Positions 24,482-31,150 of a stretch of DNA of 64,000 nucleotides are shown here, in pieces; the first letter of the stretch is position 1, and every line of letters starts with the position of its first letter. Origin of the DNA: Gammaproteobacteria bacterium. GTDB lineage: Bacteria > Pseudomonadota > Gammaproteobacteria > Ga0077536. Below the pieces are notes generated by a model. The model saw only the letters and a list, made by a program, of their open reading frames with translations. It had not been told where the DNA came from and ran no database searches. Position numbers and translations under genes: made by a program. The DNA is taken from positions 30,925-94,924 of the forward strand of contig JBFXAQ010000014.1 of NCBI GenBank assembly GCA_050184115.1, written 5' to 3'.

Positions 24482-25462
24482 ATGGCACGCGATCTGGAGC
24501 AGATGCTGGCAGGCCTGCGCGACCATCTTGCCGACGGCGCCGGATTGACCGGCATCGTGCCGCTGTCGACCGGCCATTCCAACGAGACCTACCTGCTCGA
24601 GGGCATCGATCGCATCCTGCGCATGCCGCCCTCGGAAGAAGGCCTCTTGCCGCCATACGACATGGCCCTGCAGCACGCGGTGCTGGCCGCCATGGGCGGC
24701 ACGGCAGACGGGCCGCCGGTGCCGGCGGTCTACGAACTGTGCACCGATGACAGTGTCATCGGGGACGCCTTTTTCGTCATGGAATGCCTGCAGGGCGAGG
24801 CCTTCGAGTACGTCACGCCCGATTGGTTGAGCGCGGCACCGGCCGCGTTGCCGGACGCCATGTGTCGGCAGTGGATCGGCGCCGTCACGGCCGTTCATCG
24901 ACTGCCGGTTGCGTGCATGCCAGCGGCCGCGCGCAGCCCCGTCGACGAAGCGCGTCATTGGCTGGCGGTCGCCGAGCAAGCCGAGGCGCCGGCCGCGCTG
25001 CTGGCAGTGCTACGCGAACTGGTCGCCAGCCCGCCGCGGTCGTCCGGTCCGGTCACCCCGGTGCATGGCGACCCCAAGCACGGCAATTGCCTGTGGCGGC
25101 AGGACGGGCAACTGCTGGCCCTGCTCGACTGGGAGATGGCCGGGGTCGGCGAACCGATGACGGATCTCGGCTACATCGCTCATTTCTATGACCAGGGCGA
25201 GGCCAAGCTCGCCACGGCGGGCTACGAGCTACCGGGTTGGTGGTCGAAGGCGCAGGTGGTCGCGGCCTGGGAAGCGGCGACCGGCCGCACGGCCGTCGAC
25301 TTGATGCGCTACGAGGCGCTCGCCGTGGCCAAGATCGCCGCCATCATTGCGCTCGGCTACCACCTGTTCGCCAGTGGACGGACCCGCGATCCGCGCTTCG
25401 AGGCCTGGGCTGCGGTGATACCCGGCTACGTCGACATGGCCACGCGTTTCGCGACGGCATGA
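24482..25462 (+). CDS. Phosphotransferase-family protein (APH/choline-kinase-like kinase)
   Basis: HGDPKHGNCLW (Brenner motif) and LLDWEMAGVGEPMTDLG (DxE/D motif) are typical of the APH fold. Confidence 0.8.
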   Translation: MARDLEQMLAGLRDHLADGAGLTGIVPLSTGHSNETYLLEGIDRILRMPPSEEGLLPPYDMALQHAVLAAMGGTADGPPVPAVYELCTDDSVIGDAFFVMECLQGEAFEYVTPDWLSAAPAALPDAMCRQWIGAVTAVHRLPVACMPAAARSPVDEARHWLAVAEQAEAPAALLAVLRELVASPPRSSGPVTPVHGDPKHGNCLWRQDGQLLALLDWEMAGVGEPMTDLGYIAHFYDQGEAKLATAGYELPGWWSKAQVVAAWEAATGRTAVDLMRYEALAVAKIAAIIALGYHLFASGRTRDPRFEAWAAVIPGYVDMATRFATA

Positions 25463-25477
25463 AGGCGCTGCGTTATA

Positions 25478-25567
25478 GGGCGGAGCGGAATTAAGTGCCG
25501 GGCCTTGCGGCCCGGCGAGGGGAGGTCCCAAGTACAGGTTTCGAGGGGAGGTCGATCTGCATTGGTG
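25478..25567 (-). ncRNA. Sibling sRNA 1 of 5 (CcsR/cuckoo-like, two CCUCCCCUC motifs)
   Basis: Minus strand has -35 TTGCGA, 16-nt spacer, -10 TAGACT. Variable-stem hairpin with loop UCGACCUCCCCUCGAAA, then GGGACCUCCCCUC. Terminator GCCGGGCC-GCAA-GGCCCGGC followed by ACUUAAUU. Confidence 0.55.
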
Positions 25568-25745
25568 AATACAAGTCTACACTAAAAATGCGGCATCGCA
25601 ACAATTTTATTGCACAACAGCATTTCCAATCTCGCTTGGCCCGTCACGGGAATCCGCGCCCGCGTAGTGAGCCTTCCAGTCGCGGTCGAGCCAAATAGCC
25701 GCGGAGCACGGCATGTGGCGCGCTAACGGAAGACAATCGGCAGGG

Positions 25746-25835
25746 GAAATTAAGTGCCGGGCCTTGCGGCCCGGCGAGGGGAGGTCCCAAGTACAGGTTT
25801 CGAGGGGAGGTCGATCTGCATTGGTGAATACAAGT
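25746..25835 (-). ncRNA. Sibling sRNA 2 of 5
   Basis: Near-identical to copy 1 over ~190 nt (offset 268 nt). Same promoter, hairpin and terminator. Confidence 0.55.
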
Positions 25836-25997
25836 CTACACTAAAAATGCGGCAGTGCAACATTTATATTGCATAACAGCATTTCCAATCTCGCCTGGCC
25901 CGTCACGGCAACCCGTGCTGTTTACGAGGCAATCTCGGCCGAACAGGATTGCCGCGAGGTACCGCGCACGGTGCGGTGAAGGTCGAGAATCGGTGGG

Positions 25998-26078
25998 CGA
26001 TTTAAGAGCCGGGCCTTGCGGCCCGGCGAGGGGAGGTCCCGAGTACAGGTTTCGAGGGGAGGTCGACCTGTATCGGAG
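25998..26078 (-). ncRNA. Sibling sRNA 3 of 5
   Basis: -35 TTGCAC, 16-nt spacer, -10 TATCAT. Hairpin stem CCGAUACAGG/CCUGUACUCGG, covarying relative to copy 1. Conserved loop and terminator. Confidence 0.5.
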
Positions 26079-26183
26079 GATGCCATGATACACGGTTTAT
26101 GTCGCAGTGCAACATTTCCCTGGGTGCTCGTGGCGCGCAGGCTGATGTGTCTGCAAAGCAGGCCCGTTCAGATGCCAAGGTCG

Positions 26184-26267
26184 GAAAATAAGAGCCGGGC
26201 CTTGCGGCCCGGCGAGGGGAGGTGCCAAAGACGGTTGTCGAGGGGAGGTCGAGCGTCCGTCTTGGTG
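26184..26267 (-). ncRNA. Sibling sRNA 4 of 5
   Basis: -35 TTGCGG, 16-nt spacer, -10 TATACT. Hairpin stem CCAAGACGG/CCGUCUUUGG (covarying). Terminator followed by CUCUUAUUUUCC. Confidence 0.5.
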
Positions 26268-26444
26268 TAAGCGAGTATAGGCGCCCTGTACCGCGCCGCA
26301 ACAACCAATTTGGAATAAGTCTATTCCCTTTCGTCAGCAAGGGGTTCTGCCAAGGACCTCAAGCTATGACTCAGATAGGGTCCCGAGCCGCGGCAACGAC
26401 ACCACAGCGGATCGGTGCAAGGCCGTTCGGACGAGGCGAGCGGG

Positions 26445-26528
26445 AAAATTAAGTGCCGGGCCTTTGCGGCCCGGCGAGGGGAGGTCCCAGTAACAGAATC
26501 GAGGGGAGGTCGAAGGACTGTTATGGTG
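26445..26528 (-). ncRNA. Sibling sRNA 5 of 5
   Basis: -35 TTGCGT, 16-nt spacer, -10 TATACT. Hairpin stem CCAUAACAG/CUGUUACUGG (covarying). Terminator loop has one extra U. Confidence 0.5.
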
Positions 26529-26617
26529 CGACGCAGTATAGCGCTCGATTGCCGCGACGCAACATGCAATCCGAACAACTTTGTTTCCCGGCGGGCAAAC
26601 CGCGGCGTGGCATCCGC

Positions 26618-28405
26618 TCAGGCCGGTTCGCAAGGACGTTCGGTGCGCGCGAAACCGGCCCGTCGCAGCCACAGGGCGTAGTGCTCGCGATCCTCCTCGT
26701 GGCGAAACGGCATGCGCGCGAGGTGGTCGTCGAGATCGAACTCGGGGTAATGCTCCAGATAGCGATCGACGTAGCGTGATGCCTCAGCGGTCTCTCCGAG
26801 CGCGGCATGGATGGCCGCAAACCAGCGGCAGGCCGACACCTGCGGCGTGTGCAGTTCCTTGATCACCGCCGCGGCAGCGACATAGCGCCGGGCGACGAAG
26901 TTGGCCGCGGCGTAGAGACTGCGCGGCCAGTCGCCGAGGAAGGGGTTGATGTCGAAAGCCCGCTCGAGCAATTCCATGGCACGTTCCGGTTCTCCTGCCA
27001 GGGTCAGCGCCTGGGCCAGGAAGGCGTAGCAGTCGGCGTCATTCATGTTGAGCTCGAGCGCGGTCTCGAAACATTCGATGGCCTTGTCGAGATCCTTGCG
27101 GAAGAAATGCACCATGCCGAGACACAGGCGATAGGTGTGGGCCGAAGGATCCAGGTGCGCGGCGCGCTGGGCGTAGTCGAGCGCCTTGTCGAGCGAACCC
27201 TGCGGGTCGCAGGTCCAGTATTCGTTGTAGGCGACTGCGTAGGTCCAGGCGATGCCAGCGTAGGCACGCGGATACTCCGGGTCGACCTGGATCGCCTGCA
27301 GGTAGAGCCCGCGGGCGGCGAGGTTGTCCTCGCGATTGAACTTCAACCACAGCTCGCGCCCGCGCAGGACGAGGTCGTAGGCGGCGACGCTGTGCGCGGC
27401 CTGCTCGCTGCGCGCACGTTTACGCTCGCTGACTTCGAGGCGCCCGACCAGGGTCGAGACGATGCGGCGGGTCAATTCGTCCTGGACGGCGAAGACGTCC
27501 TCGAGGCGACGGTCGAAGCGCTCCGCCCACAGGTGATGGCCGCTGGCCGCCTCGATGAGCTGCGCATTGACCCGCACCCGGTCACCGGCCTTGCGCACGC
27601 TGCCCTCGAGGATGTAGCGCACGTTGAGGTCGCGCCCGATGTCCTGGGCGCGGGGCGCGCGTCCCTTGTAGCTGAAACTCGTGTTGCGCGAGGTGACGAC
27701 GAGATCCTTGAAGCGTGACAGCTCGGTGATGACATCCTCGGTGATGCCGTCGGCGAAGTATTCGTCTTCCGACTGGCCGGTCATGTTGGTGAAGGGCAGC
27801 ACGACGATCGACGGTCGTGCCGGTGGTGCCGCGGCCGGCGCCACTGGCGAGAGCTCCGTCGCGGCACCGTCGACGTCTTCTCCTTCGTCGAGCGCGTAGA
27901 CGCGCACCGGACGCGCGATGTTCTTGACCTCCTGCTCGCCGAGGAAGCGCCAGCGCGTGTCGCCGCGACCGACGACGAAGTCGTGGGCCGGCCCCGACAG
28001 GGTGATCGAGCCCGGCTCGGCGAGCGCTTCCAGGCGCGCGGCAATGTTGACCCCCTCGCCGTAGATGCTGCCGTCGCTCTGCTGCAGGATGTCGCCCAGG
28101 TTGATGCCGATGCGGAAACGCATGCGACGCGGCTCCGGTCGTTCGGCGTTGCGCCGGGCGAGTTCGGCCTGGATGGCGAGGCTGGCATCGAGCGCTTCCA
28201 GCACGCTGTCGAACACCGCCAGGACGCTGTCGCCGGCCGTGTCGACCACCCGCCCGCCATGTTCGGCGGTGAACTCGCGGAACACGTCGCGCGAGGCTTC
28301 AAGCATCGTCACCGTGTCCGCTTCGTCCTCGCCCATCAGCCGCGAATAGCCGGCAACGTCGGCGCTGACGATGGCGGCGAGGCGGCGTCGAGGCTCGGTG
28401 AACAT
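26618..28405 (-). CDS. Class III adenylate/guanylate cyclase fused to TPR-repeat domain
   Basis: N-terminal CHD cyclase domain (AAIVSADVAGYSRLMGEDE...GINLGDIL...GEGVNIAARLE), then a TolB-like linker and C-terminal TPR repeats. Confidence 0.8.
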   Translation of the reverse strand: MFTEPRRRLAAIVSADVAGYSRLMGEDEADTVTMLEASRDVFREFTAEHGGRVVDTAGDSVLAVFDSVLEALDASLAIQAELARRNAERPEPRRMRFRIGINLGDILQQSDGSIYGEGVNIAARLEALAEPGSITLSGPAHDFVVGRGDTRWRFLGEQEVKNIARPVRVYALDEGEDVDGAATELSPVAPAAAPPARPSIVVLPFTNMTGQSEDEYFADGITEDVITELSRFKDLVVTSRNTSFSYKGRAPRAQDIGRDLNVRYILEGSVRKAGDRVRVNAQLIEAASGHHLWAERFDRRLEDVFAVQDELTRRIVSTLVGRLEVSERKRARSEQAAHSVAAYDLVLRGRELWLKFNREDNLAARGLYLQAIQVDPEYPRAYAGIAWTYAVAYNEYWTCDPQGSLDKALDYAQRAAHLDPSAHTYRLCLGMVHFFRKDLDKAIECFETALELNMNDADCYAFLAQALTLAGEPERAMELLERAFDINPFLGDWPRSLYAAANFVARRYVAAAAVIKELHTPQVSACRWFAAIHAALGETAEASRYVDRYLEHYPEFDLDDHLARMPFRHEEDREHYALWLRRAGFARTERPCEPA

Positions 28406-28427: not shown

Positions 28428-30692
28428 TCAATCGAGCAACGGCTTGCCGCTGACGAATCGATCGAGCACGTTCTTGGTGATGCGCGAGACGTTGTTCCTG
28501 TAGTTGTCGTGGGCGAGCGAGCCCGGCCAGGCGATCGAACTGGTCGCGAACACGCCGCCGCCGTTGGCGGTCTCGTAGAAGACGAGATCCGCGCGTACGA
28601 GGTCGTTCTCCTGGCCGCCGGTGCCGGGGTAGTTGATCAGCATCTCCTCGCACACCACGAGGTAGATGTCGGTGTGATCCTCCGAGGATGCCAGCAGGTA
28701 GGCATTGGGCGGTGTGCCCAGCGCACGGTCGGCGCGGTCGAGCTCGAGCCCGGCGGCGCCGCCGCCGATGAGGCCGAAGTCGCCGATGCGCTCGTCGGCG
28801 CCGACGCCGTTCATGATCCAGCGCACCTCCTTCCTGAAGCTGTCCGGCTTGCGCACGTAGTACGACGAGATGTCGAAACCCTGGGCGGTGAAGCCGGTGC
28901 CGACAATCTGCTGCGGCGGGCGGCCGTTACGTCGCCACAGTCCGCCGTACTCGCCGGTGAAACCGTGGTAGTACTCGCCCGTGCGCGCCTCCCAGGCGCG
29001 GATGCCGTCTTCGTTGCGCCGCACCTCGATGATGCCGGGCACCTCGCCGTGGTAAGCGATGCGCCAGTACCAGCCGTTGGCGCCCAGGTACATGAAGCGG
29101 CCGCCGCGCTGCTGCCAGGCATGCAGCGCATCCCACATCTGCTTCGAGTGGTATTCGGGATGCGAAGACGACAACACCACGCGGTAGGGCTCGATGGACT
29201 TGAGGCCTTCGTAGTGCAGCTCTTCGTCGGTGATGACGTCGTACTCGTAGCCCATGTTCTCGAGCCAGTTGATGATGTGGGTGTCGGCGTTGAACTGCCA
29301 CAGGGTCGAGCCCTCGCCACCCAGCCACGACTTGTACTTCGGCCGCATGTTGAGGATGGGGCGCAGGCGCGAGGAATGGCACACGCCCGAGCCGTCCGAA
29401 TGCACGTCGTAGCAGCTCGAACCATACTCGCGGTGCACGTTGCGGTAGAGATCCTGCCGCTCGTGCTCGACCAGGCGACCGCCGAGCAGCTGGGCAATCG
29501 GCGCGTCCGTGCCCATGTGCTCGTTGGCGTAGGCCATGTAGCTGGCCGTCGGCAGCACGAAACAGATCTTCGCCGTCGCCTGGCCGCGCGGCGGCAGCAC
29601 CGCGAACGGCACGTAGTCCTCGTCTTCGAGAGCCGCGCCGCAACGCAGGCGCGCGCAGTAGAGACCACTCTTGAGATTCTTCGGCACGGTCAGCGAGACA
29701 TCGACCTGCCAGGCCGCGTCGTAGACGTCGTCGTCGTGGAAGTGGATGGCGCCGTACTCGCGTGGCGCGTGGCGCCAGTTCATCTCCTCGCCGCTCCAGT
29801 TCCAGCCGGTCATGCCGCGCGCCGGCATGTGTACGACGTGCCCGTGCAGCCGGTTGGGTGAAAGATCGGAGACGCGCAAGCCGGTGATGTCGGTACTGAA
29901 GTCCCAGGCGCCGAAGACGTCGTTGGCCAGCGTGCGATCGAGGTTCGGTGCACGCAGGGTTTCCATCTCGGCGCGGTCGAGGGCGCGGGTCGCGATGCGC
30001 GGGCTGTCGATCTTGCCGTTGTAGTGCTGGTCGCACACCGTGCGGCCGGCGTCGAAGCGCTGGAAGCGGGCGGCGAGGGTGACGGGGCCATCGTGGCCGC
30101 CGAGGCGGGCTGTCTTCGCCGTGGCGCGGACGAGCGCCGCGTCGCGCGTGCCGACATGGGTGTGCAGGGGTTCCTGGATCAGCACCACTTTCTTTGTCCG
30201 GGCATCGAAGCTCGCGGCGATGAAATACCACTCGTGGGCGAGCAGGGCACGCCCGGTGGTGAAGGTTTCGCTGCGGCCGCGGGCGCCACCGAGGGTGAGC
30301 GAGATGCCGCCGTTGTCGGCGGCGATGCCGAGCACTGCGCCACCGCCCTGGCGACCTGCCCAATGGCTGATCAGCGCCTGCGCGCCGCGTTCTGGAGTAG
30401 TTGGCCAGATGAAGGCTTGCAGCGTGAAGCTGTCGAGTGCCGGCATGTTGTCGGCGCGCGGGATCTCGACGAACGAGCCGGCGTGAATCACCTGCTTGCG
30501 GCCCTTGTAGGTGCCGTTGGCCGGCGTGCGCACGACGCGTTCCTGGTACCCCGGGCCGTCCGGATTCATGTCGCCGCAGATCAGGCGCACGAAGTCGGCG
30601 CGAAATTCCCTCGCATCGCAGTTGACCATGAAGTTGATGGTTTCACCGGGCGCCACGCTGACGCGGTCGGCATAGGCAGTGATCTTCATCAT
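28428..30692 (-). CDS. dmfA2: N,N-dimethylformamidase large (beta) subunit
   Basis: ~755 aa. Start MMKITAYADRVSVAPGE with strong RBS GGGGGGAGGAAACAG. Sequence resembles the DMFase large subunit of Paracoccus/Methylobacterium/Alcaligenes type. Confidence 0.65.
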   Translation of the reverse strand: MMKITAYADRVSVAPGETINFMVNCDAREFRADFVRLICGDMNPDGPGYQERVVRTPANGTYKGRKQVIHAGSFVEIPRADNMPALDSFTLQAFIWPTTPERGAQALISHWAGRQGGGAVLGIAADNGGISLTLGGARGRSETFTTGRALLAHEWYFIAASFDARTKKVVLIQEPLHTHVGTRDAALVRATAKTARLGGHDGPVTLAARFQRFDAGRTVCDQHYNGKIDSPRIATRALDRAEMETLRAPNLDRTLANDVFGAWDFSTDITGLRVSDLSPNRLHGHVVHMPARGMTGWNWSGEEMNWRHAPREYGAIHFHDDDVYDAAWQVDVSLTVPKNLKSGLYCARLRCGAALEDEDYVPFAVLPPRGQATAKICFVLPTASYMAYANEHMGTDAPIAQLLGGRLVEHERQDLYRNVHREYGSSCYDVHSDGSGVCHSSRLRPILNMRPKYKSWLGGEGSTLWQFNADTHIINWLENMGYEYDVITDEELHYEGLKSIEPYRVVLSSSHPEYHSKQMWDALHAWQQRGGRFMYLGANGWYWRIAYHGEVPGIIEVRRNEDGIRAWEARTGEYYHGFTGEYGGLWRRNGRPPQQIVGTGFTAQGFDISSYYVRKPDSFRKEVRWIMNGVGADERIGDFGLIGGGAAGLELDRADRALGTPPNAYLLASSEDHTDIYLVVCEEMLINYPGTGGQENDLVRADLVFYETANGGGVFATSSIAWPGSLAHDNYRNNVSRITKNVLDRFVSGKPLLD

Positions 30693-30726: not shown

Positions 30727-31053
30727 TCAGGCGCGCAAGGTTTCACCCGTCAGCGCCTTCCAGCGCTGGCGGAAGACGTACCACTCGGCCTCGGTCTGGC
30801 TGGTGAAACGCCGGTTGAGCAGCTTGACCGGTTCGCCGGGTTTGCCGGTGGTCCGGGCGAGCTGCCATTCACGGTTGGGCTTGATCACCACCAGGCAGTA
30901 CTTGTCTGCCATGGGCGCACCGCGCATGCGCGTGAGCAGGCGCTGCAGGTCCGGACTGTGGTGTCCGATCGGGTTGTGCTTGAATTCCTCGATGAGGCGG
31001 CGGTCGTCCGCCTGCGGCCGGTAGTTCTCGTGCGCTTCTTTGAGTTCTGCCAT
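30727..31053 (-). CDS. dmfA1: N,N-dimethylformamidase small (alpha) subunit
   Basis: 108-aa MAELKEAHENYRPQADDRRLIEEFKHNP... ORF 34 nt upstream of the large subunit, with GGGGAGGA RBS. Trimmed from ORF 30727..31239. Confidence 0.6.
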   Translation of the reverse strand: MAELKEAHENYRPQADDRRLIEEFKHNPIGHHSPDLQRLLTRMRGAPMADKYCLVVIKPNREWQLARTTGKPGEPVKLLNRRFTSQTEAEWYVFRQRWKALTGETLRA

Positions 31054-31150
31054 GGCTTGTCCTCCCCGCGTGCCAGTGGATTGAACGCGAGCGGGGAGTA
31101 TAGCGCCGAACCCGGCGTGCCCCGTGACGGCGATGTCCCGCCCCGGCGCG

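Follow-up and report, generated by a model that had tools for sequence, protein, structure and literature searches.

A tandem array of five predicted small RNA genes with duplicated anti-Shine-Dalgarno-like motifs in an uncultured gammaproteobacterial lineage

We analyzed a 64-kb window (64,000 nucleotides, position 1 being its first letter) from a Gammaproteobacteria bacterium (assembly GCA_050184115.1, contig JBFXAQ010000014.1, positions 30,925 to 94,924 of the forward strand). Between two convergent genes the window carries an array of five repeats, which are probably five independently transcribed, co-regulated genes for a trans-acting small RNA (sRNA) of ~80 nt that most likely blocks translation at Shine-Dalgarno (SD) sites. 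The repeats represent a new sRNA family of known design from an uncultured gammaproteobacterial lineage, without a match in Rfam 15 or a description in the literature searched.

Anatomy of the array

The five direct repeats have a core of ~70 nt (25486-25555, 25745-25814, 25997-26066, 26183-26252 and 26444-26513) and are spaced by 186-261 nt. On one side the array is bounded by a minus-strand gene, whose stop codon lies at 26618, and on the other by a convergent plus-strand gene that ends at 25462. The motif CCTCCCCTC has ten sites in the 64 kb, two per repeat, all of them on the minus strand and within the array (0.76 sites expected from shuffled sequences; 0 of 100 shuffles reach ten).

Read on the minus strand, each unit begins with a sigma-70-like promoter, made up of a -35-like TTGCnn, a 16-nt spacer and a -10-like TAGACT, TATACT or TATCAT, and after ~7 further nucleotides the structured part starts. 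The 5' stem-loop combines a 9-bp stem containing one bulge with a 4-bp UCGA/UCGA stem around the 7-nt loop CCUCCCC. It is followed in every copy by a linker, GGGACCUCCCCUC, that is unpaired in the predicted fold, and then by a terminator, an 8-bp GC hairpin (GCCGGGCC-GCAA-GGCCCGGC) with the tail ACUUAAUUU, whose GCAA loop does not contain the motif. The minus-strand RNAs have an identical predicted fold in all five copies (z-scores of -4.2 to -4.7 relative to shuffles), and their predicted lengths are ~79-82 nt, with the ends placed according to the -10 box and the terminator U-tail (Table 1). The seed, CCUCCCCUC, is the perfect complement of GAGGGGAGG and is unpaired in all predicted folds.

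The sequence-only reading that preceded this work had proposed sibling minus-strand sRNA genes exposing two C-rich, anti-SD-like motifs, and the terminators, folds, covariation and promoters all bear this out. It had located one motif copy in a hairpin loop and the other in a single-stranded segment; both places are correct, except that the loop holds CCUCCCC only, as the last two bases of the 9-mer, UC, form pairs within the closing stem.

The strand was assigned from the promoter, the terminator tail and G-U pairs, since folding energy fails to discriminate; minimum free energy was rejected as a strand test because the antisense strand folds equally well or better. Within the array, terminator-like sites were called on the minus strand only, and clean U7-U8 or AUUUUAUUUU tails are present on the sRNA strand in lower-GC and ‘clade B’ relatives (see below). 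In the helices of the model alignment there are 33 G-U cells versus 14 A-C cells, which favors the minus strand. A Pfam search with the 10 largest open reading frames (ORFs) inside the array returned no domain, and on this basis coding repeats and a DUF1127 gene within the array were rejected. Each copy is therefore predicted to have what is expected of an sRNA gene: its own promoter, an intrinsic terminator and a stable structure with covariation.

Conservation, promoters and relatives

Our first homologue scan was limited to one genome per species and required both exact motifs at the right spacing. It returned 26 loci, 16 of them true, with 1-4 tandem copies. The true loci are titled as metagenome-assembled genomes (MAGs) of uncultured Gammaproteobacteria or Pseudomonadota, apart from one ‘uncultured bacterium’ and one Klebsiella label. 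The latter (L006, CAMCBY010000286.1, ‘MAG: Klebsiella pneumoniae’) has 62% GC, is syntenic with the uncultured gammaproteobacterial loci and is probably mis-binned or mislabelled. Every true copy scores at least 50.9 bits with the covariance model, the lowest value belonging to a copy interrupted by Ns. Single pattern matches in Streptomyces, Polyangiaceae and other taxa were dismissed as chance matches or coding repeats (25 bits or less with the model). In another gammaproteobacterial MAG (L010, 4100-4240) the pattern picked up at least four head-to-tail repeats of the 27-nt unit GTGACCTCCCCTCGCCCCATCCTTAAA; as relatives of the sRNA they were rejected (24.7 bits, a chance pattern match).

In a second scan, of a metagenome collection, part of the stem and the terminator were fixed and both motif positions were left free. 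This yielded 5 true loci with 11 copies, and both exact 9-mers were present in 11 of 11. A covariance model, R1, detects 46 copies (42 distinct) from 21 sources, and within the window it recognizes only the five array copies. In its alignment 94.9% of the helix cells are paired (25-47% when the partners are slid), with compensatory changes at 7 pairs. Five summary measures of covariation were compared with shuffles; the observed value was reached in 3/500 and 1/500 shuffles for two of them and in 0/500 for the rest. Every one of the 42 distinct copies, including the 11 from the motif-free scan, carries the two motifs without a change, so that the motifs are conserved in orthologous arrays as the sequence-only reading had expected.

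The closest relative is L004 (JACKNG010000002.1), with flanking proteins 88-97% identical to those of the window; another related locus is L024 (JAVJVZ010000083.1). The source environments include activated sludge and sediment, from which HK-STAS-PROT-138 and the Ga0180429-435 contigs were obtained. Between the window and L004 the sRNA bodies are 93-100% identical and the promoter boxes are conserved, while the spacers are only 30-55% identical. Such islands over promoter and RNA form the pattern that purifying selection would produce. Copy 5 (26447-26528) is identical to the first copy of L004 in a pairwise alignment. Copy number is five in the window and four in L004, in which a single copy takes the place of copies 1 and 2 of the window, and it ranges from 1 to 5 across the family. 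Copies 1 and 2 share 95% identity across 171 nt, promoter included, and thus reflect a recent duplication; compared with L004 (4100-4250), region 25480-25920 appears as a 259-bp tandem duplication at 95% identity.

When the upstream sequences of 44 distinct copies are aligned, a TTGCnn-N16-TAtacT promoter lies at a constant distance from the structure. These 44 regions have three conserved elements: the -10 box, a -35 element with an invariant TGTTGC, and a near-palindrome, ATTTGGAAACA-N3-TTGTTCCAAAT, which is centred near -53 and scores on both strands. The promoter spacer retains GC..CA, giving a TTGC-N6-GCAA-like symmetry. In the window, the palindrome is not recognizable at copy 3 and its right half is degenerate at copies 1 and 2. 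A position weight matrix (PWM) scan of the window and all loci found the palindrome only at sRNA promoters, with no wider regulon and no regulator gene, and neither the palindrome nor the TTGC-N6-GCAA element matched any transcription-factor consensus known to us. The palindrome would imply that the separately transcribed copies are co-regulated; its conservation ahead of most promoters points to a single transcription factor that may switch the array on or off. A conserved operator of this kind also provides a handle for finding the controlling regulator.

The two-copy loci that we refer to as clade B (L001, L006, L008, L011, L012, L018, L026 and L032) have an additional conserved block, GTGTTACGG-N~20-TTCATATTTGGAAAC, at the first copy only, where it immediately precedes the palindrome. 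Their two copies have distinct, conserved terminators.

A deeper search, based on homologues of the upstream protein, extended to contigs at 63-73% identity. In three of these (L035, L039 and L042) the same position is occupied by one or two divergent copies, with the promoter elements of the sRNA family (ATTCCAAA...TTGC...TATACT) and the same order of stem-loop, linker and terminator. Their motifs vary around a C/U-rich core (CUCCCCC, CCUCCCCCCC, CUCCCCU or CCUCCCUC): loop CUUCUCCCCCAA and linker ACUUCCUCUCCUG in L035; loop ACCUCCCCCCC and linker CUUCCCCUCCUC in L039; loop GACCUCCCCUCG and linker ACCUCCC in the first copy of L042; loop CUCCCCU and linker CCUCCCUC in its second copy. This drift indicates that the exact 9-mer is a mark of the high-GC clade, and that the feature conserved across the wider family is an exposed, C/U-rich core, complementary to SDs, at the same two sites. 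A further six loci from this search (L034, L036, L037, L038, L040 and L041) have N,N-dimethylformamidase (DMFase)-like operons at 63-73% identity with no sRNA at that position, and thus the association between sRNA and operon is limited to a clade.

Genomic context and complementarity to Shine-Dalgarno sites

In every locus with an available upstream flank, the array lies directly downstream of a two-gene DMFase-like operon, on the same strand. A cyclase/TPR gene separates operon and array in the high-GC clade, and the other flank is variable. The association is kept in L035, L039 and L042 (68-70% protein identity), where the remaining neighbors differ, which suggests more than local synteny, albeit within one clade. 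Gene anatomy, covarying structure, conservation and synteny are direct observations on these loci.

The small subunit encoded in the window has no Pfam match and a weak structural match (Table 1); the orthologous small-subunit position in relatives is occupied by PF26354 (DMF_alpha). The large subunit is 72-97% identical across related MAGs, and another relative in the PDB is N-acetyl-beta-phenylalanine acylase (E=1.7e-149). Orthologues of the cyclase-TPR gene were found in 10 loci (62-89% identity), and it is in the high-GC ‘clade A’ that the gene occupies this position; it shows no link to the sRNA promoter motif, as the palindrome also occurs in the clade without the gene. The window is rich in amide/hydrolase-type enzymes (acetoacetate decarboxylase family, FmdA/AmdA, a deacetylase-type amidohydrolase and the DMFase-like operon). 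In the whole 64 kb, no Rfam family scored at its gathering threshold, and a tRNA search returned none.

Table 1. Predicted features of the sRNA array and the genes upstream of it (window positions)
Feature	Position	Strand	Details and evidence
sRNA copy 1	25489..25567	minus	~79 nt; predicted start ~25567; terminator 25497-25516; motifs 25543-25551 and 25517-25525; covariance model 93.7 bits, fold, motif sites
sRNA copy 2	25748..25826	minus	covariance model 94.9 bits, repeat family D1, fold
sRNA copy 3	26000..26078	minus	terminator 26008-26027; motifs 26054-26062 and 26028-26036; covariance model 85.9 bits, fold, motif sites
sRNA copy 4	26186..26267	minus	terminator 26194-26213; linker GGCACCUCCCCUC; covariance model 90.8 bits
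sRNA copy 5	26447..26528	minus	terminator 26455-26475; covariance model 93.1 bits
Copy 1 promoter	25574..25630	minus	-10 TAGACT (25574-25579), 16-nt spacer, -35 TTGCGA (25596-25601)
Copy 1 upstream element	25605-25630	minus	GGAAA...TTGTGCAA; sequence, alignment, PWM scan
Copy 2 promoter	25833..25889	minus	layout as copy 1; alignment, PWM scan
Copy 3 promoter	26085..26112	minus	-10 TATCAT (26085-26090), 16-nt spacer, -35 TTGCAC (26107-26112)
Copy 4 promoter	26274..26331	minus	TATACT, TTGCGG, palindrome GGGAATAGACTTATTCCAAAT; best in the window (PWM 34.5 bits)
Copy 5 promoter	26535..26591	minus	TATACT, TTGCGT, palindrome GGGAAACAAAGTTGTTCGG; begins ~27 nt beyond the upstream gene's stop codon
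Class III adenylate/guanylate cyclase + TPR protein	26618..28405	minus	595 aa; Pfam; directly upstream of the array
N,N-dimethylformamidase-like large subunit	28428..30692	minus	754 aa; Pfam DMFA2_C 3.8e-99; PDB 6lvb_A E=3.5e-185
DMFase-like small subunit	30727..31053	minus	108 aa; SD GGGGAGG; PDB 6lvb_B E=1.1e-3 (weak)

Complementarity to SD sites was examined with a crude start-site heuristic over ~300 kb (the window and the related loci) rather than a genome. Among 196 candidate SD regions identified in this way, GGGGAG is the commonest 6-mer (22 regions), followed by AGGAGG and AAGGAG with 9 each. The lineage seems to favor G-rich SDs over the canonical AGGAGG; such SDs (GAGGGGAG or GGGGAGG) are found, e.g., at 1387, 15130, 23299, 44208-, 16902- and 13263-. 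Outside the array, the window contains 40 7-mers complementary to the seed, 13 of which are at SD distance from a plausible start, and 9 complementary 8-mers, 6 of which are so placed; the corresponding values for canonical TAAGGAGGTGATC are 8/59 and 3/8. This agrees with the suggestion of the sequence-only reading that complementary SDs of the GAGGGGAGG type occur at gene starts in the window. For 12 such starts the predicted seed:SD duplexes have energies of -14 to -26 kcal/mol, compared with -9 to -18 kcal/mol for an anti-SD of the E. coli type, which may differ from the 16S 3' end of the host. The candidates include both DMFase-like genes, a gene of the acetamidase/formamidase family and an acyl-CoA-synthetase-type enzyme.

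Within the DMFase-like operon, 9 of the 12 loci have GGGGAGG or GAGGGGAG as the SD of dmfA1, which gives 7 or more bases complementary to the seed (read by eye). The SD of dmfA2 is GGGGGGAGG in the window and is not conserved across loci; the predicted seed duplexes for dmfA1 and dmfA2 are at -18 to -21 kcal/mol. The 5' leader of the small-subunit gene (31053-31125, minus) has a conserved element, TTCAATCCACC(T), 20-30 nt upstream of the G-rich SD, which is also present in L006, L007, L008, L026, L029 and L032 and is preceded by a TATACT box in the window. By pairing with this SD, the CCACCU/CUCCCCGC of the leader could act as an anti-SD of its own.

Alternative readings and known sRNA families

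From these features we infer transcription, SD pairing, repression and a regulator. Each RNA would present its C-rich seed twice, in the apical loop of the 5' stem-loop and in the single-stranded linker before the intrinsic terminator, and the seeds would pair with the ribosome-binding sites (RBSs) of a set of mRNAs, blocking the initiation of translation. The several gene copies and the two seeds per RNA may raise the dose, and a transcription factor binding the palindrome may turn the array on or off. Most probably, the RNAs would act by occluding G-rich SD sites; ‘competition with the 16S anti-SD’, which the sequence-only reading had offered as a second possibility, is another wording for the same putative occlusion.

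A number of points weigh against this reading. Occlusion is its weakest step, since any RNA containing CCUCC is almost bound to complement SDs and the start-site calls behind the SD counts are heuristic. The comparison of duplex energies depends on the assumed E. coli-type anti-SD, and the candidate targets in the window share no common function. The first scan demanded exact motifs and is therefore a biased sample; the motif-free scan, with stem and terminator fixed, reached close relatives only. The antisense strand folds slightly better (mean -35.1 vs. -33.5 kcal/mol, with the sense strand better in 11 of 42 copies), the U-tail of the high-GC clade (ACUUAAUUU) is poor, and transcription is a prediction, with transcript ends that are themselves inferred.

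The repeats could, in principle, not be genes at all, and instead be clustered terminators or structured repeats of the REP type lying between two convergent genes, or else a plus-strand feature. Their location between the APH gene (plus) and the cyclase gene (minus), the strong hairpin in each unit and the antisense folding energy fit such an explanation. We nevertheless consider it very improbable, as -35/-10 boxes and operator are conserved at a fixed distance in 44 distinct copies, the conservation islands coincide with promoter and RNA and exclude the spacers, the stems change in a compensatory manner yet the unpaired motifs are invariant, U7-U8 tails follow the hairpins on the minus-equivalent strand in lower-GC relatives, and the array ORFs have no Pfam match. 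A more serious contender, though still an unlikely one, is that the RNAs are dedicated regulators of the DMFase-like operon, or of amide/C1-nitrogen catabolism, providing feedback or gating at the RBSs of dmfA1 and dmfA2. The sRNA genes follow the large-subunit gene wherever the upstream flank is available, distant relatives included; the dmfA1 SD is complementary in most of the loci read, as is the dmfA2 SD of the window; and a gene of the acetamidase/formamidase family is among the window candidates. However, such SDs are common in the lineage and the match is thus unspecific, the dmfA2 SD varies across loci, the six DMFase-like operons listed above do without the sRNA, the synteny may be merely inherited, and five copies seem too many for one operon.

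Less likely again is that the RNAs serve as decoys, titrating a protein that binds C/U-rich single-stranded RNA in the manner of CsrB/RsmZ with CsrA. No bacterial protein is known to bind CCUCCCC specifically, each RNA offers only two sites, the motif of distant orthologues drifts yet stays SD-complementary, and it complements the commonest 6-mer of the crude SD windows. What speaks for decoys is that the motif is repeated in loop and single strand and multiplied over gene copies, that its base-for-base invariance in 42 distinct copies is stricter than usual for seed pairing, and that the authors of the LhrC study raise the same possibility for their own repeated motif (PMC4132741).

The sequence-only reading had proposed that the locus looks like a diverged member of cuckoo/CcsR (ar14), and the C-rich CCUCC motif, the tandem multi-copy layout and the small size are indeed shared (PMC4615179). 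The cuckoo RNAs are defined by 2-4 adjacent hairpins with CCUCCUCCC in each 9-27-nt loop and linkers of 10 nt or less; the survey found them in 78 alphaproteobacteria among 2,680 genomes and nowhere else, the family overlaps Rfam RF02344/ar14, and about half of its RNAs belong to the primary locus, CIN1, which adjoins a DUF1127 gene (PMC4615179). Their distribution covers Rhodobacteraceae and Rhizobiales. In R. sphaeroides, CcsR1-4 are processed by RNase E from one RpoHI/HII-dependent DUF1127 mRNA (PMC8034643). At the locus studied here, a search of 25300-26750 against Rfam at E≤10 gave no ar14/CcsR match, only terminator-level noise (CC0196, SorX), in addition to the null result at the gathering score. 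CCTCCTCCC has 0 matches in the window; for the array's own motif, the matches listed in literature searches were in eukaryotic contexts only. The RNAs have one motif-bearing hairpin with a 7-nt loop and are predicted to have their own promoters rather than being processed from a DUF1127 mRNA; there is no DUF1127 ORF in the array or among the flanking genes (APH, cyclase-TPR, DMFase-like), as the sequence-only reading had itself stated; and the hosts are gammaproteobacterial MAGs. True homology to cuckoo/CcsR is thus contradicted on every defining feature tested; we give it a negligible probability and reject membership. The survey does not support the accompanying remark that other proteobacterial classes also have cuckoo-like arrays.

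The resemblance to cuckoo/CcsR is functional and convergent, given that the membership features tested were absent. Both consist of sibling sRNAs arranged in tandem, each RNA repeating a C-rich motif that is in part anti-SD, and both arrays lie directly downstream of a conserved protein gene. Unlike cuckoo, with its motif CCUCCUCCC, the RNAs described here use CCUCCCCUC, carry the second motif in an unpaired linker and have a motif-free terminator as their second hairpin. Overall, the observation made by the sequence-only reading is confirmed and its functional reading is plausible, while its family assignment is wrong.

Listeria monocytogenes has five LhrC genes, four of them in tandem. The closest architectural match to our array is provided by these RNAs, LhrC1-5, which are five homologous copies with their own promoters and a shared regulator-responsive element upstream of ~-53 (PMC4132741). 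In contrast to our RNAs, LhrC has a Firmicutes host, the motif UCCC/CUCCC and a third motif copy within the loop of its terminator, and its regulator is LisR (PMC4132741); here there is a 9-mer seed, a motif-free terminator loop and a high-GC gammaproteobacterial host. As to homology with LhrC, no Rfam sRNA family scored above noise, in a library in which the presence of an LhrC model is unconfirmed. Nearest by host class and target type is sX13 of Xanthomonas, also from a high-GC gammaproteobacterial host, whose CCCC/CCCCC loops target G-rich RBS motifs; a substantial share of genes (5% in Xcv) carry its target motifs at their RBSs, and it is highly structured and Hfq-independent (PMC3771888). 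It differs in being a single-copy RNA of 115 nt next to polA, with three motif loops, no single-stranded seed and no array, whereas the RNAs in the window have one C-rich loop, a different neighborhood and no Rfam match to sX13. Occlusion of SD or G-rich RBS sites has been shown experimentally for both LhrC and sX13 (PMC4132741; PMC3771888). Firmicutes sRNAs with C-rich seeds (RsaE/RoxS, RNAIII hairpins, FsrA), as cited in the LhrC and cuckoo papers, likewise occlude SDs with UCCC/CCCC in loops or single strands; their sequences and hosts are unrelated and they are single genes rather than arrays.

Following cuckoo/CcsR and LhrC, the family is a third independent case of sibling genes with a redundant C-rich anti-SD seed, which supports convergent evolution of this design. 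Described by a covariance model, the family counts 46 close and 4 divergent copies, and the invariant 9-nt seed beside freely co-varying stems makes it a useful test case. If the 16S tail of the host is the canonical CCUCCUUA, the RNA would bind the SD more strongly than the ribosome does; if the tail is CCUCCCC-like, the RNA would be a true anti-SD mimic. The seed invariance, the SD-type match and the fixed position behind the DMFase-like operon all bear on whether these RNAs act as a global brake or as a pathway-specific regulator. A far-reaching version, which we regard as rather doubtful, is that about one fifth of the genes of the lineage have an extended G-rich SD (GAGGGGAGG-like), to which a multi-copy RNA with two invariant seeds would bind far more tightly than the canonical 16S anti-SD. 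On this view the array would serve as a switch, controlled by dose and gated by a regulator, that takes an entire class of mRNAs away from the ribosome at once; it would be genetically tied to the DMFase-like amide-catabolic operon and may also control it. The interest of the family would be higher if the RNAs do gate an entire SD class.

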